Shown here in pieces: positions 2,487 to 52,575 of a DNA stretch of 64,000 nt. Position 1 is the first letter of the stretch; the number at the start of each line of letters is the position of its first letter. The DNA comes from Escherichia coli (GTDB lineage Bacteria; Pseudomonadota; Gammaproteobacteria; Enterobacterales; Enterobacteriaceae). Both the position numbers and the translations under genes were made by a program. The stretch lies in NCBI RefSeq assembly GCF_051903065.1, contig NZ_CP178438.1; one strand, given 5' to 3'. The notes below the pieces were generated by a model that was not told where the DNA came from, made no database searches, and was given only the letters and a program-made list of their open reading frames with translations.

Positions 2487-2511
2487 AAAAGGCCGCTATG
2501 CGGCCTTTTTT
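2487..2511. terminator. Bidirectional hairpin terminator between portal gene and convergent cargo gene
   Basis: ggccgc-tat-gcggcc stem-loop flanked by A-run and T-run. Confidence 0.6.
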
Positions 2512-3202
2512 AATTTGCGTCATCATTTTTTTTATTTTCTAAAGACTCAATATACCCTCGCAAATTAAATTCTTTATTTTCTCTGAGTTTAGGTCCTTCT
2601 TTAGTATCTGAGCCTCGTTGCTCACGTAAACTTTTATTCAAAGCATCGATCAATTCTTGTCTAGAGATTTCCGTTGCAATTAACCCATCAAAATATCTCT
2701 TCATTTTTCTCGCGCTCTCGGTTACTTTAACAACTTCAAAACCAAGGCAGAGCAAATAAATTAGCGTTGTTATTGTAAATCCAGTATCTACAGAGATAAA
2801 ATAGCCAATATCGAGCACTTTCTTAAGTGATTCCAAGGGCATAACCATGCACAATAAAACCAAAAGCAAACCAGTGCCAAGATATAAATAAGTCATTGAG
2901 TTTCTTTCAATCAGCTTGAAGTACTCATCTCTCTGACCTTCAAAGCTAGCAACAATCTTAGGGGGTGTTTTTTTTGGAAGATCGAGGTCTCGAATTTTAT
3001 CCTGAAGATCTACGTATCTTTTAATAAGTAAACCGACTATGGCAGCAGTGATTAATGAAAGCGTTTTCGATAAAATATTGCCCATTTCCACGAGCACATT
3101 TAATTTATAATTAATCAGATATACTACACTCGATGCCAATACTCCACTTAAAATGGATAATATTATATAAAACGCATATCGCTCCACTCGATTTTTAATC
3201 AT
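2510..3202 (-). CDS. Hypothetical 4-TM membrane protein (candidate effector of a two-gene cargo cassette)
   Basis: 230-aa ORF with about four hydrophobic helices and a charged C-terminal tail; AT-rich; overlaps upstream gene by 4 bp. Confidence 0.6.
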   Translation of the reverse strand: MIKNRVERYAFYIILSILSGVLASSVVYLINYKLNVLVEMGNILSKTLSLITAAIVGLLIKRYVDLQDKIRDLDLPKKTPPKIVASFEGQRDEYFKLIERNSMTYLYLGTGLLLVLLCMVMPLESLKKVLDIGYFISVDTGFTITTLIYLLCLGFEVVKVTESARKMKRYFDGLIATEISRQELIDALNKSLREQRGSDTKEGPKLRENKEFNLRGYIESLENKKNDDAN

Positions 3203-4188
3203 GGATTTATTACCCCATCAGCTAACAATCTGAGCAACCACTCTACCATTTCCTCACAAACGCTATCAATAACAGGCATCCCATTATTATATTCAATATT
3301 GACGGTGTCTTTTATTTGTATTTCGTCATTTCTTAAAATACCTGCGCCTTTTAACTCTATGGTTAATGCTTCATCACGGTTATCGATAAGAGCCTCCGTA
3401 ATTTTCCTTAAAATATTTTGTTCCTCATCATTAGCTTTATATTTATACCCTATAGAAACATCTATCGTTAAATGTTCTCGAGACATGTCAACTGAAACAT
3501 CCTGTGATGCATTGTGTTTACGCAACACATCAACTCTGTGCTCACCGATAAGAGATTTCAATAATTCACTAGCGACATCATCTACTCCATCTCCATAAGA
3601 GGATAGAGGCAGCTTCAAGCTTACATTTTTTACATTGCTACGCATCAGCAATTCATTAGTCAAACGTAAATTTCCTGCTTGTAATATAATAAAGTTATCA
3701 ACATCAACCCTTAGATTATCCTTCAAAATGTAATTAATATAATTTTCAATATCTTTAATTCTAATTGCACGACTTTGCAATATTATTACATGATTTTTGA
3801 CAATCCCGATATATGCAACACTATCTAAATATTCTTTCGGAACACTTCCAGTAAGCTTTAATGCTTCATAAGCCAATCGATTTTTTTTATATTCTGAAAC
3901 ATCAAAAACTGGCACACTATTCCCTGGCTCAATATAAACTATTTCACCAAAAAATATACCATTCCGTTCGAAGGAATCAGATAAAACCATGTGCGCGTGG
4001 CTGCTAACACAAGGGTCACTATCTCCAGTTTCAAGATAGTAAATTCTGTCCTCAACGGTTGGAAACTTGTGATTAACAATTTCGTTCATACGATTCTGCA
4101 AATCACTTGCTAAAAGAGCATCCTTTTTAGGAAGCATTACTGCGTGTCGATAGTGTAACGCTTTAACTTTTGAGGGATTACTGGCCAT
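3199..4188 (-). CDS. Hypothetical soluble protein (candidate sensor partner of the 4-TM protein); alternative TTG start at 4230
   Basis: ORF 3199..4230 in track; the ATG at 4188 (MASNPSKV) has a GGA 7 nt upstream; AT-rich; no family recognised. Confidence 0.55.
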   Translation of the reverse strand: MASNPSKVKALHYRHAVMLPKKDALLASDLQNRMNEIVNHKFPTVEDRIYYLETGDSDPCVSSHAHMVLSDSFERNGIFFGEIVYIEPGNSVPVFDVSEYKKNRLAYEALKLTGSVPKEYLDSVAYIGIVKNHVIILQSRAIRIKDIENYINYILKDNLRVDVDNFIILQAGNLRLTNELLMRSNVKNVSLKLPLSSYGDGVDDVASELLKSLIGEHRVDVLRKHNASQDVSVDMSREHLTIDVSIGYKYKANDEEQNILRKITEALIDNRDEALTIELKGAGILRNDEIQIKDTVNIEYNNGMPVIDSVCEEMVEWLLRLLADGVINP

Positions 4189-4270
4189 GAAACATCCATT
4201 ATTAATCTTAGATTTAGTGATATGGAACAATCATACAATCTGTTAATTTTTCTTGCCACAACTCCTTTTC

Positions 4271-10293: not shown

Positions 10294-10926
10294 ATGATAC
10301 AGGTAAAGGCTGGAGAGAATACAGGGGGAAGAGAGGCTATCCATAGACTAATGGCAGCCTATGATTTCAAGTCCAGACAGCAACTTTGCGATCACTTAGG
10401 CGCATCAAAAAGCACCATGGCAAACAGATACTTAAGAGATAGTTTTCCTGCAGAGTGGGTGATTCAGTGCGCCTTGGAAACAGGAGTTTCTTTACTGTGG
10501 CTAACCACCGGACAGGGAGAGCCAGGTCCAAACATTGAACCTAAAAAAAATATCAATTCCGTGAACTCCAGCAAAGTTGTACCTCTTTCTGAACTAGTAT
10601 CTCCTGAAATTGACAAGGCGACTCTCAACGGTGGTTTATTGGTCGATGCTGGAAAAGCAATCATTGATAGCAGCATACTCCCCTCAGACTCAAGCAACCT
10701 ACTGCTGGTGACTACTTCTGGTGATTCTTATTTAATAGATCGCAACCAAACACCACCAGTAAATGGTATGTGGTTAGTCGATATCGACGGGATAAAAAGC
10801 ATTGTTAAATTGACTCGGCTCCCGGGAAACAAATTAGTAGTGCATCAGGATGATTCATCGTTTGAGTGCGGTCTGGATGACATTGAGGTAGTAGGCCGCG
10901 CACTGAAAATCATTAAGAGCCTTTGA
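10294..10926 (+). CDS. cI: Prophage CI-like immunity repressor
   Basis: 210-aa ORF with N-terminal HTH, located directly upstream of int as in 186. Confidence 0.6.
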   Translation: MIQVKAGENTGGREAIHRLMAAYDFKSRQQLCDHLGASKSTMANRYLRDSFPAEWVIQCALETGVSLLWLTTGQGEPGPNIEPKKNINSVNSSKVVPLSELVSPEIDKATLNGGLLVDAGKAIIDSSILPSDSSNLLLVTTSGDSYLIDRNQTPPVNGMWLVDIDGIKSIVKLTRLPGNKLVVHQDDSSFECGLDDIEVVGRALKIIKSL

Positions 10927-10927
10927 T

Positions 10928-11941
10928 ATGACCATCAGAAAACAGCCGAACGGAAAATGGTTGTGTGAGTGCTATCCCAATGGACGCAATGGCAAGCGCG
11001 TGCGTAAGCAATTTGCTACGAAAGGCGAAGCCATTGCGTTTGAAAGCTTCACAATGGAAGAAGTGAATAAAAAACCGTGGTTGGGTGAAAAGGATGATCG
11101 GCGACGCCTATCAGAATTAATTGAGCTTTGGTATTCCCTGTATGGTCAAACACTCGCAGACCCCAAGCGCCTCATGGCGAAACTTAGAATTATCTGTAAT
11201 GGTCTAGGCGATCCCATCGCCTCAGAACTGACAGCTGGTGACTTTACAAAATACCGCGAAGCACGGTTAAAAGGTGAAATACGAAATGAAGATGGCACGC
11301 TTATGTCGCCCGTTAAGCCCCGCACGGTAAACCTTGAACAGCGCAATCTATCATCTGTGTTCGGTACATTAAAAAAACTAGGACACTGGTCAGCACCAAA
11401 CCCGCTGGCAGGACTTCCGACCTTCAAAATTGCCGAAGGTGAGCTGGCTTTTCTTTCCACAGACGAAATCAAGCGCCTGTTGGCGGCATGTGCTGAATCT
11501 CAAAACCCTAGCTTACTAATGATTGCAAAAATATGCCTAGCTACTGGCGCACGGTGGAGTGAAGCCGAAAATCTGCAGGGCCACCAAATATCGAAATACC
11601 GAATTACTTATACAAAAACAAAAGGCAAGAAAAACAGAACAGTACCCATATCACAGGAGCTGTATGACGAACTCCCAAAGAACAGAGGGAAGTTATTCTC
11701 ACCATGTAGAAAAGCCTTTGAACGAGCAGTAAAACGGGCAGGTATAGATCTACCGGATGGCCAATGCACCCACGTGCTGCGACATACGTTTGCTAGTCAC
11801 TTTATGATGAATGGCGGGAACATACTTGTGCTAAGGGATATTTTGGGACATTCGGATATCAAGATGACCATGGTTTACTCACATTTCTCACCAGATCATC
11901 TTGAAGATGCCGTTACTAAGAACCCATTAAACTTGATATAA
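10928..11941 (+). CDS. int: Tyrosine integrase, P2 family
   Basis: 337 aa; C-terminal HxLRHT...Y catalytic region; resembles P2 Int. Confidence 0.9.
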   Translation: MTIRKQPNGKWLCECYPNGRNGKRVRKQFATKGEAIAFESFTMEEVNKKPWLGEKDDRRRLSELIELWYSLYGQTLADPKRLMAKLRIICNGLGDPIASELTAGDFTKYREARLKGEIRNEDGTLMSPVKPRTVNLEQRNLSSVFGTLKKLGHWSAPNPLAGLPTFKIAEGELAFLSTDEIKRLLAACAESQNPSLLMIAKICLATGARWSEAENLQGHQISKYRITYTKTKGKKNRTVPISQELYDELPKNRGKLFSPCRKAFERAVKRAGIDLPDGQCTHVLRHTFASHFMMNGGNILVLRDILGHSDIKMTMVYSHFSPDHLEDAVTKNPLNLI

Positions 11942-11954
11942 AACAGCCAAAATT

Positions 11955-13712
11955 CTATTTCATCAAGTAATCCAATTCATCCTTCATAGGTATAACTTGC
12001 TCATAAAGTCTATGGTAGGATTTTCCAATTGCGCCCCTAAATTGAATAAGTTTAGGGGAAAAGCTACCGATATTAATAATATGTTCTTGCGCTATACCAG
12101 GATATGGATCGATAAAAATAATCTCTGTCATACCTAACTGATAAGCTTTTTTAGCACAAAGTTCACAAGGGCTAGCTGTAGTATATAGTTTCCCTCCATT
12201 AATACCGACCCCACCATATTTGGCCAATTGCAAAAAAGCATTCTCCTCTGCGTGTAATGCACGGGTATGCACTTGATTCCCTTTCTTTTCATCATCAAGG
12301 CTGTTGTGAATATCTTTAAAACAATATGGCAAATTAAGTCCTTTAAAAACAGTAGAACTTGAATCACTCGCCCTTATTTTTATTAAATTTTCTTTAACTT
12401 TACTCCTAAATTTTGTATTACTTCGTTCGTACAGGCTATATGTTCCCTCATCAAAATCATGCAATAACCCATCAAATGACCTCATAGAACAAGGAACTTG
12501 ACCTTTTGCTACATCGTTCCAACCAACTGACTTGATAGAGTTATCATTATCTGTCACAACCGCCCCTACTTGCCTAGATATACATCCAGAATTTAGTTTT
12601 ACAGTATATGCAACTTGCATAACCCTTTCCATGGCGGTAGGAGATATTAATCCAGGGTGTTGCATTAATGATACATACCACGCAATTTGTGCTTTGAGAA
12701 AATTATTATTATCAAATTCTTTTTTAGGGTTAAAAAAATGTATATCTGAAATTTCAATGCATTTTTTTACATTAGGATTAGTAAGATGATTATACTCGCC
12801 ATCTCCTTTACCAGATTCTTCATCATTAATTTTCTTTATCTGTTCCTCTGAGAACTTATGTAATTTCTTTAAATATCTGGTTCGATGTTCATCTGGTGCA
12901 TTTATAGAAACCAGATGGAATGCAGCATATCTATCTTTGAAGAATTTAGCTTCATACGGGTTACGTATCGCATCAATGACTATATACGCTTTATTATTCT
13001 TTACTTTTCTAATTATTTTAATAACACGATTAATTGTTTCAGGTAAATGAAAAACAGCCTTTGGAATAAAGTCTTGATTTTCATAATCTACATCAACCTT
13101 CCCTATTCTTCTAATTGACTTTCCTGCTGACTGATATAGCTCAATATATAAACCTGGCTCTAGTTCATTTAATTCCCTTTTAAAATCCCGTGTAAATTTT
13201 CGAGTAAGAGTTAATATCCTAATAAAGGTATCTTTCCCCCTGCCTTTAAAGTCAATCTCATCATCATGATTAAGAAGATTTTTTATCACCTCAAGATATT
13301 TTATCTTCAACAAACTTTTAGCGAACACACCATTAACAACCAGTTTCTTGGCTACCTTAAAGGAAATCGAATTTTCTTTTTTATCGGGGATTTTACTTGC
13401 AGAAAACTGAATGAATTTAGCTAAGGCCGATGGAGATAAAAGGAGCAAATATATTGAAATGAGATCACTGACCTTTATCGAATAGAAGTTCTTCCAATGA
13501 GTCTCTGCAAAATTTTTTACTATTTCATAACGCCGCAAATCCAATCCTTTATAATACTCAGCCAAGACGTTACTATCTGGAAAAGATATTTCTTTTTGTT
13601 CTAAAATATTTGCTGCAGTAGTACATCCTGAGCCAGTTCTCCCAGTTAAACCAATAAGAATAAATTGACTATTTTCTAAAAAAAGCTCACTAATAAATTT
13701 GTGTTCTCTCAT
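11955..13712 (-). CDS. P-loop nucleotide-kinase / cytidine-deaminase fusion protein (candidate antiphage dCTP-deaminase-type cargo gene)
   Basis: N-terminal GLTGRTGSGCTT Walker-A-like motif; C-terminal HAEENA...PCELC zinc-deaminase motif; AT-rich; lies between int and attR. Confidence 0.65.
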   Translation of the reverse strand: MREHKFISELFLENSQFILIGLTGRTGSGCTTAANILEQKEISFPDSNVLAEYYKGLDLRRYEIVKNFAETHWKNFYSIKVSDLISIYLLLLSPSALAKFIQFSASKIPDKKENSISFKVAKKLVVNGVFAKSLLKIKYLEVIKNLLNHDDEIDFKGRGKDTFIRILTLTRKFTRDFKRELNELEPGLYIELYQSAGKSIRRIGKVDVDYENQDFIPKAVFHLPETINRVIKIIRKVKNNKAYIVIDAIRNPYEAKFFKDRYAAFHLVSINAPDEHRTRYLKKLHKFSEEQIKKINDEESGKGDGEYNHLTNPNVKKCIEISDIHFFNPKKEFDNNNFLKAQIAWYVSLMQHPGLISPTAMERVMQVAYTVKLNSGCISRQVGAVVTDNDNSIKSVGWNDVAKGQVPCSMRSFDGLLHDFDEGTYSLYERSNTKFRSKVKENLIKIRASDSSSTVFKGLNLPYCFKDIHNSLDDEKKGNQVHTRALHAEENAFLQLAKYGGVGINGGKLYTTASPCELCAKKAYQLGMTEIIFIDPYPGIAQEHIINIGSFSPKLIQFRGAIGKSYHRLYEQVIPMKDELDYLMK

Positions 13713-13934
13713 TTCGCACCTGTTACGTTATAACACAAGTCTCTTCCATGTTGTATTTATTAGTATTTATTAAAAAACAAGAAATTGCAACATAGCGGTA
13801 ACAATACACACACCAAGAAAATGGCGGCAACTTGGCGGCAGAGCTTTAAAAACGTATAAAACGGATAAACACAAAACAATACCAACCAACTGTTTTTGAA
13901 AACAAATTATTGTTTTCATTATAATATAAATGGT

Positions 13935-13979
13935 ATGTAGGAATTTCGGACGCGGGTTCAACTCCCGCCAGCTCCACCA
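13935..13979 (+). other. Partial duplicate of ssrA (tmRNA) 3' end: prophage/island attR
   Basis: ATGTAGGAATTTCGGACGCGGGTTCAACTCCCGCCAGCTCCACCA matches the tmRNA 3' terminus (T-arm, acceptor, CCA) with no upstream tmRNA body. Confidence 0.85.
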
Positions 13980-14108
13980 ATCATGATTGGACGGTGTAAA
14001 AACAACACCAACAAAAACAGGAAGTTAGAAGTCTCAGCAGGACACCGACCAGACGGTGAGGAGACATAAAAGGATACGCAAAGGAGCCGCGGCTCCTGGT
14101 GACATGAA

Positions 14109-14130
14109 AGCCCACAGATGTGGGCTTTTT
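14109..14130 (+). terminator. Rho-independent terminator hairpin
   Basis: gcccaca-ga-tgtgggc stem followed by TTTTT. Confidence 0.6.
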
Positions 14131-14139
14131 CGTTGATGG

Positions 14140-17100
14140 TCAGAACGACCAGTTCACACCAGCCACCGCGTTCCACGGGGATTCCACATCGGCACCGTTG
14201 CTATACCCCACCCCGAGATGCCCGCTTAACGTACTGCTGAATGAGGCTTTAATACCTGCCTGGTATATTTCACGTCTGCCCGACAAATCATTGACGAAAT
14301 TACCGTCATTATTCACCTTCACCCGGTTATCATCGACAAATTCTTTGCGCACAGCCGCCTTCAGCCACGGCTCAACTTCCATACCGTTCCCCAGACGCAT
14401 GTTGTAACTCAGCGTTGCACCCAGTTCACGATATATACTGCGGGTATCGACTGATTTCGATTCCATGCCATTGGATAAATGATATTCAGGGTTATCAGCG
14501 GTGAACCCCGTTAACGATGCATACGGCGTCAGGTTCCAGTTACCATCGGTAAATCGCATCCCGGTTTCAATGTGACCGCCCAGCCCGTTGCTGCGATAAC
14601 TGCCGTTGGCGGCTCCACCGCTGCTCATTTTACCGGCTACGTTACTTTCAAAACGGTTCAGCTTCACGACACCGTCCAGATAAAAACCACTTTCATGTTC
14701 CCAACTGGCATAGCCGCCCAGAGAATAACTGCCCACACTGCCATGTCCTCCGCGATCAAAACCGATATGTGAATGGGAATAGCCCATAAAAGCGCCCAGC
14801 GTGGCAATCCCTTCAGGAATATCATTACGACTGTCGATTCCCACTGTCATTCCGGTCAGCGTCTGCTCAAACCCGGCACCCGCATCGGTGGTGACATTAT
14901 TACGGGTGTTATACGTCGCCCCCCAGACATTATTGTTGTGTGGACTCGCTTTCATTATGTTCAACCGCTCGCGAATACTGTTTAGCTCAGCATCAAATAC
15001 CAACGGTAATGTTGCAGCCATATTGAGTACGGCTGCCGTAGAAGGCGTGATGCGTTTCTCCGGAACGGGTGTCGGCGTTGGATCGGGAGTCGGGTCTGGT
15101 TTCGGATCCGGTTTTGGGTCTGGTTTTGGATCTGGCTTCGGATTTGGGTTGGGATTTGGGTTGGGATCCGGGTTGGGTTTGACATCATTGGTCAGGTTCC
15201 AGTTGCTGTTGCCATCGCTTTTCAGGACATACTCATAGGTCCCAAGATCAACGAAACCGCCAGTATTGCCCAGCGAAAACGAAGCATCCCCTCCCCCTGT
15301 TTTCACCAGCGTCATCGCGTCGTCAGACTGAGGGCTGACGCCGGTATCCTGAACAAAGATTTTAAAATTACCAGTGGCGTTGTTGTTGACGACCAGTTGA
15401 TCGCCCCGGGAGCCAGCAACGTTGGTATGCAGGTAGAAATTACCGCTACCGGAAAGTTCATTGGTTGTCAGCGTATTGTAGATACCGTTAGTTGTGGCAG
15501 GCGCTGCTGTTTGTGCTGATAAATAAACATCACCGTCGTTGAGTAGCAAACTGTTTACTCTATATTCGCAGTTGCTGGTACCTGCACAGGAATTATTGCT
15601 GTTAAGCCAGACACTGCCCCGGCTGGCAGCCGTCAGGTCGGCAAGCGTGGTATCGACGCCATTTCCCAGAGTTAATGTCGCGCTATCGGTAATCCGAACC
15701 GCCCCTTCAAGTTTTACTGGCGTAACATTATCCCGTGGCGTGATTAACGACAGGCTTCCTGTCGCGCCACTGACCGATGCATCCGCCAGCGTACCTGCGT
15801 AGATGATTGCCGTCCCGCCAGCGACCTGGAGATCTTCTGCCCGGGCCAGAGGCTGAAACTCATCTTTTGACCGCCCAAGGGTATATTGCCCGCCAGAGTT
15901 AACCTTTGTAGCGGAGTCCTGACCCAGGTTTTGCATTGCACCACCCTTGCCAACCGTGGAGTCATGGGCTTCGGTACCTGCTAATACCAATAAATTACCA
16001 CCATTTTCCAGCAACATATTGGTCGCTAAATTTCCGGCAATGGAAAAGGTGCCGTACTGGTGAGTACCGCTGATTTCAATACCGTTAGCCGTGCTCGTCT
16101 GGAGAGCGGCACCGCTGTTCTGGACGATATCTGTCGCTTTGCCATTATCGTTGACTGTCAGCGTTCCGCCTTCATTGATCGTTGTTTTTATTGCTTCTCC
16201 GTTAGCTGAAACTGTTTGTATTCCGCCGTCGTTAATTGTTGTCTCATTCGCCACACCCTCGACGATTTGTTCACCGCCGGTGAGCGTCGTGCCTGTCGCA
16301 GTGGCTTTTGTTTTGACGATCTCCCGTCCGCCCGTATTGACCTGTGTTTTGTCAGAAGAGGTGTCTGACTCTACGGTTAACACGCCGCCATTTGCCAGCA
16401 GGATATTGTTCGCCGCACCCTGCTCGATGCTGAACGCGACGCCATCCGCGCGTGTTCCTGTGACCCGCGTCGCCCTGGTGGTTGCAACCAAAGCGCCCTG
16501 CCTACTCTGCTGTATCCCCGTTGCGCTGCCTTTCTCCCACACATCGAGTGTGCCGCCGTCATTAAGCACCGAGTTTTCAGCCAGACCGCCCTCATTAACT
16601 ACCTGTGAACCCCCATTAATAATGGAACCTTCCGCTGTCCCGTTTGCCATAATTTGTTGTAGGCCAGAGACGATATCGGTATTGATTGCCTTACCATAAT
16701 TCTGAACGGTTTGCGTGCCACCATTGATGTGTGTTTTCTCTGTTGACCCACCATCAACAATTTGTTCACCACTTTCGATATTTGCCTCAGTGGCTAATCC
16801 ATATACCGTTTGCTTGCCACCTTTGATATTTGCTTTATCAGAAGTGGCACTGGCATATATTGTTTGGGTGCCAGCACTATTGAGTACAGTGCCAACATCT
16901 TTTCCATAAACATCCATTTTGCCGTTGGCATTAATAATCGTATCAACTGCCCGGGAACCAGTGACGACTGTTAATGAGCCAGCGTTTTCCAGCACTACAT
17001 TTTTAGCTTCTGAATTCCTGATGTAGAAAGCATCACCATAACTGTTGGTTCCTTCGATAAGTGTTCCGGAGGTCGTGGAAGCAATTAATGCGCCGCCGGA

Positions 17101-17470
17101 TTGTTGCTCAACATGCTTAGCCTCACCACCGTCCTGAACCTCCAGAACGCCGCCATTATTAAGTCTGGTGCTATCTGTTTTAGCCTCCTTCTGGACAATC
17201 AGCTTACCGCCAGCATCAATGGTAGTATTTTTCGCCGAGGTTTTAGCCACTACCGTCAGTTCGCCGGTATTTTCCAGCACAACATAATTAGCCTCCCCTC
17301 CGGTAATAGTGAAGTGAGAGAGCTTGTTGTATCCTTCGATATCAGTCCCTGCACCCGTGTTGGCAACTAAAGCACTGCCCGTCTCCTGGTTAACCCCATG
17401 TGCAATACCGCCGGTATAGACAATCAGCGAGCCTCCGGCGCTAATATTGCTGCCAATTGCCGTACCATCT
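14140..17470 (-). pseudogene. ypjA: Autotransporter adhesin (YpjA-like), 5'-truncated by IS903
   Basis: Repetitive passenger domain, PNPDP/KPDP linker, C-terminal beta-barrel ending in WSF; ORF lacks signal peptide and runs into the IS903 end. Confidence 0.7.
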
Positions 17471-18527
17471 GGCTTTGTTGAATAAATCAGATTTCGGGTA
17501 AGTCTCCCCCGTAGCGGGTTGTGTTTTCAGGCAATACGCACGCTTTCAGGCATACCTGCTTTCGTCATTTTGTTCAGCGCTCGTACCAGGGCCATAGCCT
17601 CTGCAACCTGACCATCGTAGTCACGCAGTGTCAGTGAACCCCCGAACAGCTGTTTTACCCGGTACATCGCCGTTTCCGCTATCGAGCGACGGTTGTAATC
17701 TGTTGTCCATTTCCACCGCGCATTACTCCCGGTCATTCGCTGATTAGCCACTGCACGGTTACGGTCTGCATATTCACCGGGCCAGTAACCCGCACCTTTT
17801 CGGGGAGGGATAAGCGCGCTGATTTTCTTACGCCGCAGTTCATCGTGACATAGCCGGGTATCGTAAGCGCCATCGGCGGCGGCTGACCTGATTTTCCGGT
17901 GGGTTTGCCGGATTAACCCGGGGAAGGCCTCTGAGTCCGTAACGTTGTTCAGCGACAGGTCAGCGCAGATGATTTCATGTGTTTTACTGTCAACGGCGAG
18001 ATGCAGCTTACGCCAGATACGGCGGCGTTCCTGGCCATGCTTTTTGACTTTCCACTCGCCTTCACCGAAGACCTTCAGCCCGGTGGAATCAATTACCAGG
18101 TGTGCGATTTCACCCCGGGTGGGCGTTTTGAAACTGACATTAACCGACTTTGCCCGCCTGCTGACACAGCTGTAATCCGGGCAGCGTAGCGGAACGTTCA
18201 TCAGAGAAAAAATGGAATCAATAAAGCCCTGCGCAGCGCGCAGGGTCAGCCTGAATACGCGTTTAATGACCAGCACAGTCGTGATGGCAAGGTCAGAATA
18301 GCGCTGAGGTCTGCCTCGTGAAGAAGGTGTTGCTGACTCATACCAGGCCTGAATAGCTTCATCATCCAGCCAGAAAGTTATGGAGCCACGGTTGATGAGG
18401 GCTTTATTGTAGGTGGGCCAGTTGGTGATTTTGAACTTTTGCTTTGCCACGGAACGGTCTGCGTTGTCGGGAAGATACGTGATCTGATCCTTCAACTCAG
18501 CAAAAGTTCGATTTATTCAACAAAGCC
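17471..18527 (-). mobile_element. IS903-group insertion sequence (IS5 family), complete 1057 bp
   Basis: Terminal inverted repeats GGCTTTGTTGAATAAATC at both ends. Confidence 0.85.
17527..18495 (-). CDS. IS903 transposase
   Basis: 322-aa ORF; translation matches IS903 transposase as recalled. Confidence 0.85.
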   Translation of the reverse strand: MKDQITYLPDNADRSVAKQKFKITNWPTYNKALINRGSITFWLDDEAIQAWYESATPSSRGRPQRYSDLAITTVLVIKRVFRLTLRAAQGFIDSIFSLMNVPLRCPDYSCVSRRAKSVNVSFKTPTRGEIAHLVIDSTGLKVFGEGEWKVKKHGQERRRIWRKLHLAVDSKTHEIICADLSLNNVTDSEAFPGLIRQTHRKIRSAAADGAYDTRLCHDELRRKKISALIPPRKGAGYWPGEYADRNRAVANQRMTGSNARWKWTTDYNRRSIAETAMYRVKQLFGGSLTLRDYDGQVAEAMALVRALNKMTKAGMPESVRIA

Positions 18528-18583: not shown

Positions 18584-18859
18584 GTGGCTTCTGTTTCTAT
18601 CAGCTGTCCCTCCTGTTCAGCTACTGACGGGGTGGTGCGTAACGGCAAAAGCACCGCCGGACATCAGCGCTATCTCTGCTCTCACTGCCGTAAAACATGG
18701 CAACTGCAGTTCACTTACACCGCTTCTCAACCCGGTACGCACCAGAAAATCATTGATATGGCCATGAATGGCGTTGGATGCCGGGCAACAGCCCGCATTA
18801 TGGGCGTTGGCCTCAACACGATTTTACGTCACTTAAAAAACTCAGGCCGCAGTCGGTAA
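18584..18859 (+). CDS. insA: IS1 InsA
   Basis: [21 protein letters not shown]... translation. Confidence 0.9.
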
Positions 18860-19281
18860 CCTCGCGCATACAGCCGGGCAGTGACGTCATCGTCTGCGCG
18901 GAAATGGACGAACAGTGGGGCTATGTCGGGGCTAAATCGCGCCAGCGCTGGCTGTTTTACGCGTATGACAGGCTCCGGAAGACGGTTGTTGCGCACGTAT
19001 TCGGTGAACGCACTATGGCGACGCTGGGGCGTCTTATGAGCCTGCTGTCACCCTTTGACGTGGTGATATGGATGACGGATGGCTGGCCGCTGTATGAATC
19101 CCGCCTGAAGGGAAAGCTGCACGTAATCAGCAAGCGATATACGCAGCGAATTGAGCGGCATAACCTGAATCTGAGGCAGCACCTGGCACGGCTGGGACGG
19201 AAGTCGCTGTCGTTCTCAAAATCGGTGGAGCTGCATGACAAAGTCATCGGGCATTATCTGAACATAAAACACTATCAATAA
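18778..19281 (+). CDS. insB: IS1 InsB (transposase expressed as InsAB' by frameshift)
   Basis: 167-aa ORF overlapping insA in the -1 frame. Confidence 0.9.
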
Positions 19282-19296
19282 GTTGGAGTCATTACC

Positions 19297-20468
19297 AAGA
19301 ACGTAAACAAATCCATCCAGAAGATATACATCTCACTGCAAAAGACTTCGAAGCAAGTAAAGATAACATCTCTAAGGATGAATGGGAAAACCTCCATGCA
19401 TTAAAAGAAAAGCGTTTAAATGGAATGCCTAAAACAACCCCCAAAAGTGACCAGGTTATTATGCTGCAAAATCAATACGTTCGTGAAATGCGAAAATATG
19501 GCGTACGAGGTTTACGTTATGATGCGGCAAAACACTCAAAACATGAACAAATAGAAAGATCAATAACCCCACCGCTTAAAAATTATAATGAGCGATTACA
19601 CAATACTAACTTATTTAACCCAAAATATCATGAAAAAGCCGTTATGAATTACATGGAATATCTGGTAACTAGTCAGTTGGATGAACAACAAATGTCATCG
19701 CTGCTTTATGAAAGAGATGATTTAAGCGCCATTGATTTTTCATTGCTCATGAAGACGATAAAAGCCTTTTCATTTGGTGGCGATCTCCAAACCCTTGCAT
19801 CAAAACCGGGTTCCACAATCTCAAGCATCCCATCAGAAAGACGGATATTGATTAACATTAACCACGATTTCCCTAACAATGGTAATCTTTTCAATGACTT
19901 TCTATTTAACCATCAACAAGATGAACAATTAGCAATGGCATATATGGCCGCTCTCCCGTTCAGCAGGCCTTTAGTTTACTGGGATGGCCAAGTATTAAAA
20001 TCAACGACTGAGATTAAAAATGATGATGGGTCCACGCGTGTCGGCGGTGAGGCGTGGCTTAATAAAGGTTGCTCTACCTATCAGCAGCTCTACAATGAAT
20101 TCCACGCATTATATATAGATAAAGCAGGAATATGGAGCGCATTTGAGGGTGTATTTGCAACTAAAAACGTTCTGGCCTTTAGTCGTGGGGATTCTGTGAA
20201 TATTAATCACTCTCCTCATGACGGACTAGTTATAATAAATAAAGGAAACGAAGAAATTGAAGGTGCCTGGCCTAACAAATTGCAACCAGGAATATATAAA
20301 AATATGGGGAGTAATAGCGTTAACATTATTATTAATAATACACGCAAAAGTATTCCCCCTGGTAAAGTATTTACGCTTAAAGGCGGAACTCTAAATATCA
20401 ACATTCCTGGGCGTAGCGCTCTTCTTTTAGGGAAAACAGGAGAACTGCCGAACTATCTCTATTTGTAA
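19297..20468 (+). pseudogene. ygaQ: 3' fragment of a glycoside-hydrolase family 13 (alpha-amylase-like, YgaQ-type) gene truncated by IS1
   Basis: Reading frame open from the IS1 boundary; GLRYDAAKH catalytic-region motif. Confidence 0.55.
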
Positions 20469-51847: not shown

Positions 51848-51924
51848 TGGTGCATCCGGGAGGATTCGAACCTCCGACCGCTCGGTTCGTAGCCGAGTAC
51901 TCTATCCAGCTGAGCTACGGATGC
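51848..51924 (-). tRNA. argQ: tRNA-Arg (anticodon ACG)
   Basis: Reverse complement is GCATCCGTAGCTCAGCTGGATAGAGTACTCGGCTACGAACCGAG...CACCA. Confidence 0.9.
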
Positions 51925-52122
51925 ATCGGGAAAATTTATTTTACTGCTGATATTGATATCGCTACTAAAGCCATATCAAGTAAGAGATGGTGCATCCGGG
52001 AGGATTACTCGCCTTGCGGCTCGCCCTTCGGGCCGTTGCTGGCGCAACGTTATCCTCCCTGGTGCCTGCGGTTAATTCCGCTACCTCTTCGATACCTTCA
52101 TTGCTGAAGATTTCGGAGAATA

Positions 52123-52199
52123 TGGTGCATCCGGGAGGATTCGAACCTCCGACCGCTCGGTTCGTAGCCGAGTACTCTATCCAGCTGAGCTACGGATGC
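52123..52199 (-). tRNA. argZ: tRNA-Arg (anticodon ACG)
   Basis: Identical tRNA-Arg sequence. Confidence 0.9.
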
Positions 52200-52261
52200 A
52201 TCGGGAAATTTATTTTACTGCTGATATTGATACCGCTACTAAAGCTGTATCAAGTAAGAGA

Positions 52262-52338
52262 TGGTGCATCCGGGAGGATTCGAACCTCCGACCGCTCGGT
52301 TCGTAGCCGAGTACTCTATCCAGCTGAGCTACGGATGC
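52262..52338 (-). tRNA. argY: tRNA-Arg (anticodon ACG)
   Basis: Identical tRNA-Arg sequence. Confidence 0.9.
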
Positions 52339-52402
52339 ATCGGGAAACTTACTTTACTGCAGATTTTTTGATACCGCTACTAAAGCCGTATCAAGTAAGA
52401 GA

Positions 52403-52479
52403 TGGTGCATCCGGGAGGATTCGAACCTCCGACCGCTCGGTTCGTAGCCGAGTACTCTATCCAGCTGAGCTACGGATGC
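52403..52479 (-). tRNA. argV: tRNA-Arg (anticodon ACG)
   Basis: Identical tRNA-Arg sequence. Confidence 0.9.
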
Positions 52480-52482
52480 AAA

Positions 52483-52575
52483 TGGCGGTGAGGCGGGGAT
52501 TCGAACCCCGGATGCAGCTTTTGACCGCATACTCCCTTAGCAGGGGAGCGCCTTCAGCCTCTCGGCCACCTCACC
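52483..52575 (-). tRNA. serV: tRNA-Ser (anticodon GCU)
   Basis: Reverse complement is GGTGAGGTGGCCGAGAGGCTGAAGGCGCTCCCCTGCTAAGGGAG...CGCCA with long variable arm. Confidence 0.9.

Follow-up and report, generated by a model that had tools for sequence, protein, structure and literature searches.

The gene on the minus strand at 11955..13712 of the window, by which we mean the whole 64,000-nucleotide stretch of Escherichia coli DNA analyzed here, very probably (at roughly 0.88) codes for a dCTP deaminase that defends against phages as a single protein, a member of the AW1.7/U09/AvcD family carried as int–att cargo by a 186-like prophage in ssrA. The reading frame runs from an ATG start to a TAG stop at 11955-11957 and specifies 585 amino acids that are recognized by both PADLOC and NCBIfam models. 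It is an intact copy of a catalogued anti-phage gene, and in that sense already known and nothing new. A chance origin of the frame is not an issue, because it extends over 1.76 kb in DNA of 33% G+C and family E-values reach 2e-146. A preliminary description of this DNA had portrayed the gene as strongly AT-rich, convergent with int, and placed in the moron position between int and an ssrA-derived attR. All of this was borne out: the G+C content of the gene is 33.2% versus 50.1% for the whole window, the integrase gene faces it from the plus strand, and both the coordinates and a comparison with E. coli strain 127 place int on one side and attR on the other.

Family assignment

The NCBIfam equivalog NF041025, named "anti-phage dCTP deaminase," scores 420.5 bits against a cut-off of 400, and its alignment spans residues 17-577 of the protein and the entire profile. 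The PADLOC dCTPase model PDLC02373 matches at 2e-146. A full-length match to phrog_8118 was likewise obtained, and PHROGs dCMP deaminase families also match the C-terminal domain. Only one residue (V120A) separates the window protein from RefSeq WP_001513130.1, the "anti-phage dCTP deaminase" of strain 127, and RefSeq uses the same name for the gene in six E. coli genomes, whose copies are 99.5-99.8% identical. Among 5,426 complete E. coli genomes, near-identical copies occur in 6 and homologs of any kind in 43, and the copies reside on mobile DNA in every case examined. Deposited phage genomes contain no full-length homolog, the best match being 27% identical over 62% of the protein; carriage of the gene by an infectious phage is suggested solely by the structure of the prophage.

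The enzyme of strain AW1.7 (WP_045268677.1), with which the window protein shares 75% identity over its full length (437/586), depletes dCTP upon T7 infection and blocks several phages (bioRxiv 10.1101/2021.04.26.441389; Nat Microbiol 2022). Its defense is lost with either G29A/C30A or C370A/C401A (Tal et al., 10.1101/2021.04.26.441389). These four residues correspond to G29, C30, C377, and C408 in the window protein, where four of four are kept. The remaining residues required for defense, H487, E489, C516, and C519, are present as well. Tal et al. delineate the family as single polypeptides of more than 350 amino acids that combine an N-terminal kinase-like P-loop with a C-terminal cytidine/dCMP deaminase domain (bioRxiv 10.1101/2021.04.26.441389), and this is the architecture found here, with 585 amino acids, a P-loop at residues 21-32, and the deaminase domain PF00383 at residues 361-533. 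The location on a mobile element that characterizes the family is equally evident, in the int–att slot of a 186-like prophage. The call of a dCTP-deaminase-type defense gene made in the preliminary description is thus supported by the identity to AW1.7, by the conservation of the tested residues, and by the very check that it had suggested, a profile comparison with defensive dCTP deaminases, in which NF041025 exceeded its cut-off and PADLOC agreed.

Domain architecture

The same description had ascribed to the protein a P-loop nucleotide-kinase-like domain followed by a CMP/dCMP deaminase domain. Pfam and the fold matches of an AF2 model agree with this layout, and the three motifs it named are all located in the 585-residue protein: the P-loop GLTGRTGSGCTT at residues 21-32, HAEENA at 487-492, and PCELC at 515-519. 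The N-terminal kinase-like domain (approximately residues 1-350; 12663..13712, minus strand) is delimited by its motifs, the AF2 model, and a weak CoaE Pfam match. Its Walker A motif is non-canonical, reading G24-x4-G29-C30-T31 with a cysteine where a lysine is expected, and it is complemented by a Walker-B-like YIVID247. A poorly conserved helical insert occupies approximately residues 91-160. The C-terminal zinc-dependent CMP/dCMP-type deaminase domain (approximately residues 356-585; 11958..12647, minus strand) is matched by PF00383 with an E-value of 2.7e-14. It bears the catalytic residues H487, E489, C516, and C519, together with C377 and C408, the cysteines of a second zinc site.

Across 116 homologs, the P-loop, the Walker-B-like motif, the HAE and PCxxC motifs, and the second-zinc-site cysteines are invariant, and the segments at about residues 91-160 and 406-480 are the least conserved. 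Divergence in these two segments could alter the regulation or the specificity of the deaminase. The AF2 model has a pLDDT of 79. Its C-terminal half matches the fold of dCMP deaminases (E 6.6e-7, or about 1e-6), and its N-terminal half weakly resembles adenylate kinase 5 and dephospho-CoA kinase. Searched by sequence and by fold, the PDB holds no full-length relative, only matching dCMP deaminase domains.

The int–att slot of the prophage

A P2/186-type tyrosine integrase gene (10928..11941, plus strand), recognized by its reading frame and its tyrosine-recombinase family matches, adjoins the deaminase gene tail to tail: its TAA stop reaches 11941, leaving 13 nucleotides (nts) before the stop codon of the deaminase gene. 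Its counterpart in strain 127 is annotated as "site-specific integrase." It is preceded by a 186-type CI repressor gene (10294..10926, plus strand; reading frame and strain 127 annotation), with the apl/cII/fil early genes further leftward. The CI repressor and these early genes together identify the element as a 186-like P2-family prophage. A related locus in Citrobacter has Pfam matches to Phage_CI_repr, Phage_CP76, and Phage_186_Fil.

At the other boundary, 222 nts from the deaminase gene, lies a 45-nt fragment of the ssrA (tmRNA) 3′ end (13935..13979, plus strand), which constitutes the attR core. The Rfam tmRNA model matches it partially, at 34.7 bits (E 1.3e-11), a sub-gathering score as expected for a fragment, and the fragment is invariant in all related loci compared. 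It represents the distal att site, because the near-identical prophage of strain 127 carries a full ssrA at its opposite end. Alignment of relatives further defined a prophage att arm (13821..13934) that is common to related prophages regardless of their cargo. The arm is about 90% identical to the corresponding DNA of the U09 construct, of strain 127, and of FLI21, which carries other cargo, and this identity extends as far as about 13820/13821. The att core and the adjoining arm are kept in the Citrobacter and NCTC9038 loci too, with differing content. A GCCGCCA direct repeat within the arm may be an integrase arm site.

In related prophages, the slot between int and att holds either other deaminase alleles or unrelated cargo, and the dCTP deaminase alleles in this slot number at least four across E. 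coli and Citrobacter, having diverged to 70-83% identity. Conserved bounds (int and att) thus enclose content that varies among related prophages, as befits a hotspot, and the slot has been described as a minor P2 defense hotspot (bioRxiv 10.64898/2026.02.27.708500). The main P2 hotspot is situated elsewhere, flanked by replication gene A and the portal gene, where this window has two unannotated genes.

The upstream region

Alignment of upstream regions revealed that the deaminase gene is headed by a cargo-specific 5′ flank of approximately 110 nts (13713..13820, minus strand) bearing a Shine–Dalgarno sequence, AGGTG. The Citrobacter allele of 83% identity has a conserved counterpart of this flank; the U09-like allele and the FLI21 cargo do not. 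Few distinct sequences were available among the upstream regions of the four allele types aligned, and the conservation seen upstream is due to the att arm. The gene likely possesses its own promoter, to judge from an extended −10-like element, TGnTATAAC, picked out by visual inspection; a promoter scan of the upstream minus strand found no consensus site and no more sites than shuffled sequences contain.

Proposed mechanism

By this account, a short promoter region of its own would drive the AT-rich gene in the lysogen, and the deaminase, to judge from its relatives, would be kept inactive in uninfected cells. Infection by a lytic phage able to shut down host transcription would then release the enzyme. 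This step is suggested by the T7 gp5.7/gp0.7 escape mutants obtained against AW1.7 and by the loss of the labile AvcI RNA that activates Vibrio AvcD. Once released, the zinc deaminase (H487/E489/C516/C519) would hydrolytically convert dCTP, and probably dCMP, to dUTP and dUMP, a chemistry borrowed from relatives and matched here by the residues that perform it. Collapse of the dCTP pool would stall phage DNA replication, which would protect the lysogen and, with it, the prophage. The P-loop domain, with its invariant cysteine in place of the Walker A lysine, most likely works by binding a nucleotide or its triphosphate and not as a classical kinase. In relatives, this domain is needed for function (10.1101/2021.04.26.441389).

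Alternative explanations

A variant of the main explanation, differing from it in the control step alone, would make the locus an AvcID-type type III toxin–antitoxin, in which a labile 5′ noncoding RNA, transcribed from the 233 nts that separate the start codon from the ssrA-derived att core, inhibits the deaminase post-translationally until transcription shut-off removes the RNA. AvcD enzymes of Vibrio, Proteus, and ETEC depend on such an antitoxin (Hsueh et al. 2022, 2023): in V. cholerae, V. parahaemolyticus, P. mirabilis, and ETEC alike, the homolog is held in check by its own cognate RNA of about 150-280 nts, encoded directly 5′ and in the same orientation as the deaminase, co-transcribed with it, and often annotated as a small ORF. 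A 63-amino acid ORF with a TTG start (13770..13961, minus strand) does lie 5′ of the window gene in the same orientation. A labile inhibitor would also fit the T7 mutants that escape AW1.7, whose mutations fall in the host-RNAP modifiers gp5.7/gp0.7 (10.1101/2021.04.26.441389). Nonetheless, such control is unlikely here. Deaminase-specific upstream DNA amounts to only about 110 nts (13713-13820), the rest being att arm and core that are about 90% kept with other cargo. The 233-nt upstream stretch folds no better than its shuffles (z = −1.29; 23 of 200 fold as well), and Rfam, even at a permissive threshold, matches nothing upstream beyond the tmRNA fragment. Moreover, the AW1.7 clone contains only 83 nts of upstream DNA, yet is tolerated and infection-inducible (10.1101/2021.04.26.441389). 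Folding, Rfam, and the upstream alignment therefore yield no evidence of an AvcI-type RNA, a result to be read in light of the lack of mutual sequence similarity among AvcI RNAs, which places them beyond the reach of homology searches and leaves computation unable to show their absence. With the ETEC TW10598 allele as the query, no record for H10407 AvcD, the homolog whose RNA antitoxin has been demonstrated, appeared among the 40 matches listed or the four TW10598-allele records. Doubtful indeed is a more specific form, in which a labile AvcI-like RNA spanning the att arm and the ssrA-derived core (13713-13979, minus strand) silences the enzyme. If true, its template would in part be the recombination site, and prophage excision and re-integration would rewire control of the deaminase. 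Alternatively, the AW1.7-like clade may need no RNA antitoxin and may sense infection via the helical insert at about residues 91-160.

Could the protein serve something other than defense by dCTP depletion? A nucleotide-metabolism helper like T4 cd, raising dUMP/dTTP for the lytic growth of the prophage itself and not for host defense, would account for a C-terminal domain whose nearest relatives by sequence and fold are the dCMP deaminases of phages and cells, T4 Cd with its second zinc site among them, and that the PHROGs dCMP deaminase families recognize. This role was rejected as very improbable. The gene sits outside the lytic operons, in a variable slot where sister prophages carry unrelated cargo, so the phage can do without it; with about 50% G+C in the surrounding window, extra dTTP is not obviously needed; free sequenced phages lack a full-length homolog; and two-domain relatives deplete dCTP and block phages. 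Still harder to credit is a ComEB-like housekeeping dCMP deaminase, or else a TadA/APOBEC-like editor of tRNA or phage DNA, domain-search outcomes of the kind that the preliminary description had named as speaking against its own proposal. The ComEB equivalog TIGR02571 reaches 41.6 bits against a cut-off of 219.45, over residues 483-537 only, and ComEB is a single domain of about 150 amino acids that lacks the extra ~350-residue domain present here. Nor is the gene housekeeping in its distribution, being rare and always on mobile DNA where examined. For an editor, one may cite weak Pfam matches to MafB19, Bd3614, and APOBEC_N (E 0.0035-0.07, with APOBEC_N at 0.071) and the presence of TadA/ADAT2 structures among the fold matches at E-values of about 1e-3. 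However, these fold matches are distant (1.4e-3 at best), trailing the dCMP deaminases at 6.6e-7 by approximately three orders of magnitude; no NCBIfam editing-deaminase model matches; and DNA- and RNA-seq revealed no editing by the AW1.7 enzyme (10.1101/2021.04.26.441389).

Significance

An anti-phage dCTP deaminase at this position would equip the lysogen with a nucleotide-depletion defense and probably narrow its phage sensitivity, which bears on phage typing and phage therapy. Relatives are already validated, one of them in the same prophage slot, and the RefSeq annotation is already in place, and beyond correct annotation the importance of this copy is small. The locus does offer a clean example of the int–att cargo slot in ssrA-integrating 186-like prophages. 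The general question concerns the off-state and the switch-on of AW1.7-type single-gene dCTP deaminases, and it is no easier to approach with this locus than with existing clones.

Comparison with known systems

The catalytic half of the protein has its counterparts in T4 Cd and other dCMP deaminases (PDB 1VQ2, 4P9C, 2W4L, and 2HVW) and in the bifunctional dCMP/dCTP deaminase of PBCV-1 (7FH4), with which it shares the fold and the HAE/PCxxC zinc site. The N-terminal part of T4 Cd aligns with the C377/C408 region and has cysteines near those positions in the aligned stretch. Unlike the window protein, dCMP deaminases are only about 130-190 amino acids long, lack a P-loop domain, and act in dTTP biosynthesis; identity to the window C-terminal domain is about 20%.

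The AvcID systems (DcdV–DifV; V. cholerae VSP-I, V. parahaemolyticus, P. mirabilis, and ETEC H10407) share both the P-loop kinase-like and the dCMP-deaminase domains, and in both cases the Walker A motif dispenses with its lysine, having Ser52 in V. cholerae AvcD and Cys30 here. AvcD enzymes deaminate dCTP as well as dCMP and become active upon transcription shut-off (Hsueh et al.). V. cholerae AvcD is shorter, at 532 amino acids versus 585, and AvcID includes an AvcI antitoxin RNA of at minimum 152-174 nts, for which folding and alignments found no counterpart upstream of the window gene.

AW1.7 resembles the window protein in being one polypeptide that begins with a P-loop kinase-like domain and ends with a zinc deaminase. 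The window protein is nine amino acids longer, and the two diverge mainly at about residues 91-160 and 420-480. Their genomic settings differ: the AW1.7 gene belongs to a small island at tRNA-Phe and adjoins a P4-type integrase, whereas the window gene belongs to a 186-like prophage at ssrA. Fixed positions that hold changing sets of anti-phage genes are known from P2-family prophages (Rousset et al. 2022, PMC9122126; 10.64898/2026.02.27.708500). The U09 dCTP deaminase, which is also protective against phages (Tal et al., Table S5, 10.1101/2021.04.26.441389), comes from the same slot as the window gene, as its construct opens with the ypjA terminator, followed by the ssrA att core and then the att arm, a stretch that shares 90% identity with window positions 13820-14140. 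Likeness of the U09 protein itself is judged via the NCTC9038 allele (WP_032248869.1), which is 70% identical to the window protein, lies between att and 186-type int/CI genes, and has a 5′ flank 98% identical to the U09 construct. The proximal promoter region of this U09/NCTC9038 allele is unlike that of the window allele, and its gene-to-int gap in NCTC9038 is about 380 nts compared to 13. By extrapolation from these relatives at 70-75% identity, the window allele would be expected to be active as they are, to be expressed in the lysogen, and to cover a similar range of phages.

The dCTP deaminase and its fold

The minus-strand gene at 11955-13712 is an uninterrupted ORF of 585 codons with an ATG start. 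The encoded protein has GLTGRTGSGCTT at residues 21-32, HAEENA at residues 487-492 and PCELC at residues 515-519. The G+C content of the gene is 33.2%, against 50.1% for the entire window, and the composition profile of the window dips at 12-14 kb. The ORF, its motifs, its AT-richness, its convergence with the integrase gene and the nearby ssrA fragment are all present as the preliminary description had them. Its reading of the gene as a dCTP-deaminase-type defence gene is correct. The HMM comparison that it proposed matches the defensive family: the protein scores 420.5 bits across the entire profile of the NCBIfam equivalog NF041025, "anti-phage dCTP deaminase" (curated cut-off, 400 bits), and 2e-146 against the PADLOC dCTPase model. 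It also matches phrog_8118 end to end, and is 75% identical over its full length (437/586) to the validated enzyme of E. coli AW1.7.

Pfam recognises residues 361-533 as a CMP/dCMP deaminase zinc-binding domain; near the N-terminus it detects nothing beyond weak kinase-like signals (CoaE, E 0.059). Matches in the PDB, by sequence and by fold, are dCMP deaminases only, the best being T4 Cd and the cyanophage S-TIM5, human, S. mutans and PBCV-1 bifunctional enzymes. In an AlphaFold2 model built from 50 homologs (mean pLDDT 79), the N-terminal half weakly resembles adenylate kinase 5 and the dephospho-CoA kinase domain of CoA synthase (E ~0.01). The two identities that would have counted against a defensive role, a housekeeping dCMP deaminase and a tRNA-editing enzyme, are both rejected: the ComEB model gives 41.6 bits where its cut-off is 219, and by fold the dCMP deaminases match about a thousand-fold more strongly than the tRNA-editing deaminases do. 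Both the gene and its location are known: the gene has already been catalogued and annotated within a characterised defence family, and the prophage hotspot that holds it has been described.

Across 116 aligned homologs, each at least ~55% identical, the P-loop GLTGRTGSGCT, a Walker-B-like hhhhD (D247), H487-A-E489, P-C516-x-x-C519, and C377, C408, C464 and H482 are invariant. Conservation is lowest at residues ~91-160, a helical insert in the AlphaFold2 model, and at ~406-480. In all 116 homologs a cysteine takes the place of the Walker A lysine. The corresponding residue of V. cholerae AvcD, the deaminase of the Vibrio-type AvcID system, is a serine whose change to lysine kills activity. Together, these observations make it unlikely that the "kinase" domain acts as a classical phosphotransferase.

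The prophage and its cargo slots

The deaminase gene is convergent with that of a 337-aa tyrosine integrase (10928-11941, plus strand), the two stop codons being 13 nt apart. Upstream of its start codon, at a distance of 222 nt, is a 45-nt copy of the ssrA 3' end (13935-13979, plus strand). Rfam matches this copy to the tmRNA model, at the model's 3' end, with 34.7 bits (E 1.3e-11), a score below the gathering score, as expected of a fragment. The copy is the displaced att site, that of the prophage end which carries the integrase gene. The spacing and the ssrA copy bear out the earlier placement of the gene between int and an ssrA-derived attR; it is the sole gene in this interval (the int-att slot), and the chromosome to the right of the att site continues with ypjA. 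To the left of the integrase are genes for a 186-type CI repressor, Apl, CII, Fil, a TraR/DksA-type protein, Dam methylase, replication protein A, DinI, portal and terminase. E. coli strain 127 has the same arrangement at 99.4% nucleotide identity, and its prophage continues with head, lysis and tail genes of P2 type, then ogr and finally a complete ssrA adjoining smpB. From this gene content and the strain 127 continuation, the element is identified as a 186-like P2-family prophage of ~35 kb in the ssrA 3' end.

The window protein differs by one residue (V120A) from WP_001513130.1 of strain 127, annotated in RefSeq as "anti-phage dCTP deaminase". Its allele (at least 99.5% nucleotide identity) occurs in 6 of 5,426 complete E. 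coli genomes and any DNA-level homolog in 43; among the 40 matches listed, all except the weakest partial ones bear the same annotation. The int-att slot of a 186-like prophage also houses an 83%-identical allele in Citrobacter braakii, the NCTC9038/U09-type allele and a 70%-identical allele in ETEC TW10598, and this slot is reported to be a minor defence hotspot of P2 phages (10.64898/2026.02.27.708500). No full-length homolog was found among deposited phage genomes. In a sister 186-like prophage at ssrA in E. coli FLI21 (NZ_CP139808.1), the slot instead holds an unrelated hypothetical gene of 352 aa (WP_059320302.1; 1748-2806 of that locus, L014), in the same direction as int; it has no match in PADLOC and is another, unannotated cargo gene of the slot. 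At the opposite prophage end in strain 127 (NZ_CP023377.1), outside the window, a hypothetical 237-aa gene between ogr and the complete ssrA (11996-12709 of that locus, L017), likewise unmatched in PADLOC, may mark a further cargo slot adjoining attL.

The main P2-family defence hotspot (2510-4230, minus strand), bounded by the portal gene (1447-2475) on one side and DinI and replication gene A on the other, is filled by two overlapping AT-rich ORFs (~33-34% G+C) of 343 aa (3199-4230, minus strand) and 230 aa (2510-3202, minus strand). Neither protein matches PADLOC, NCBIfam or Pfam; the 343-aa protein matches phrog_3482 (3e-32), whose function is not known. The sister prophage of strain 127 carries an S8 peptidase and an AAA ATPase there instead. 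Found in 2 of 5,426 complete E. coli genomes and annotated hypothetical, the pair is a candidate uncharacterised two-gene defence system, and probably a more novel item of this prophage than the deaminase.

Beyond the att site only the 3' 3.1 kb of the autotransporter gene ypjA remains (ORF 14140-17280, minus strand), interrupted upstream by an IS5-type transposase gene (17527-18495) that is directly followed by IS1 insA/insB-like ORFs (18584-19281). Judged by its position, the ORF at 19425-20468 probably represents part of the alpha-amylase-family gene located between IS1 and glaH in strain 127. The stretch from ypjA to ypjCB and tRNA-Ile appears deleted relative to that strain. Four tRNA-Arg(ACG) genes clustered with a tRNA-Ser(GCU) gene (51848-52575, minus strand) resemble the ordinary E. 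coli argQZYV-serV cluster and are unrelated to the deaminase.

Control and proposed mechanism

In Vibrio, Proteus and ETEC H10407, AvcD is inhibited post-translationally by its cognate non-coding RNA, AvcI, which has a minimum length of 152-174 nt, lies directly 5' of AvcD in the same orientation, and disappears once phages halt host transcription. AvcI RNAs from different species share no sequence similarity. In alignments, the att core and arm are ~90% conserved to roughly 13821 across prophages with different deaminase alleles, and equally in one prophage with unrelated cargo, leaving only ~110 nt (13713-13820) of upstream DNA specific to the deaminase module. Predicted folding of the entire 233-nt upstream DNA is not better than that of shuffles (z = -1.29), the only Rfam family it matches is tmRNA, and the AW1.7 gene functions with 83 nt of upstream DNA. 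The upstream conservation is accounted for by the att arm. Together, these results leave an AvcI-type antitoxin at this locus a possible but unsupported feature. A 63-aa TTG-initiated ORF (13770-13961, minus strand) lies upstream of the deaminase gene, reads in its direction, and overlaps both the ssrA-derived core and the att arm. "Small hypothetical ORFs" like it proved to be AvcI RNAs in other species, but this one is probably a chance frame, because it falls mostly within sequence common to prophages with other cargo.

Family membership, intact catalytic and P-loop residues and a prophage cargo position are established in the window. In close relatives, infection triggers dCTP depletion and the cell is protected from phages; both domains are required, and activity is linked to host transcription shut-off. 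By extension, the window enzyme would be expressed in the lysogen from its own promoter and stay latent in uninfected cells. Infection would then activate it, and by deaminating dCTP (and dCMP) to deoxyuridine nucleotides it would stall phage DNA synthesis.

Comparison with the validated enzymes

The two family members that Tal and colleagues cloned, from E. coli AW1.7 and U09, both protect E. coli MG1655 from several phages (10.1101/2021.04.26.441389). With the 576-aa AW1.7 enzyme, dCTP is depleted after T7 infection while DNA and RNA are not edited. Defence is abolished by G29A/C30A in the P-loop and by C370A/C401A at the zinc-binding site, and T7 escape mutations map to gp5.7 and gp0.7, modifiers of host RNA polymerase (10.1101/2021.04.26.441389). 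In the window protein the counterparts of these four mutated residues are G29, C30, C377 and C408; the AW1.7 protein compared was WP_045268677.1, from the complete AW1.7 genome, which is part of the E. coli collection. The genomic settings differ: the AW1.7-type gene adjoins a P4-type integrase at tRNA-Phe in AW1.7, and a P4-type integrase in Citrobacter freundii as well, rather than occupying a 186-like int-att slot. The 5' end of the U09 construct, by contrast, comprises ypjA terminator, ssrA att core and att arm sequence with 90% identity to window 13820-14140. The remainder of the available U09 5' flank is 98% identical to that of the NCTC9038 deaminase gene, a gene flanked by att on one side and a 186-type int/CI pair on the other, whose product is 70% identical to the window protein. 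Given this shared att sequence and flank, one of the two validated genes, that of U09, appears to derive from the same prophage slot.
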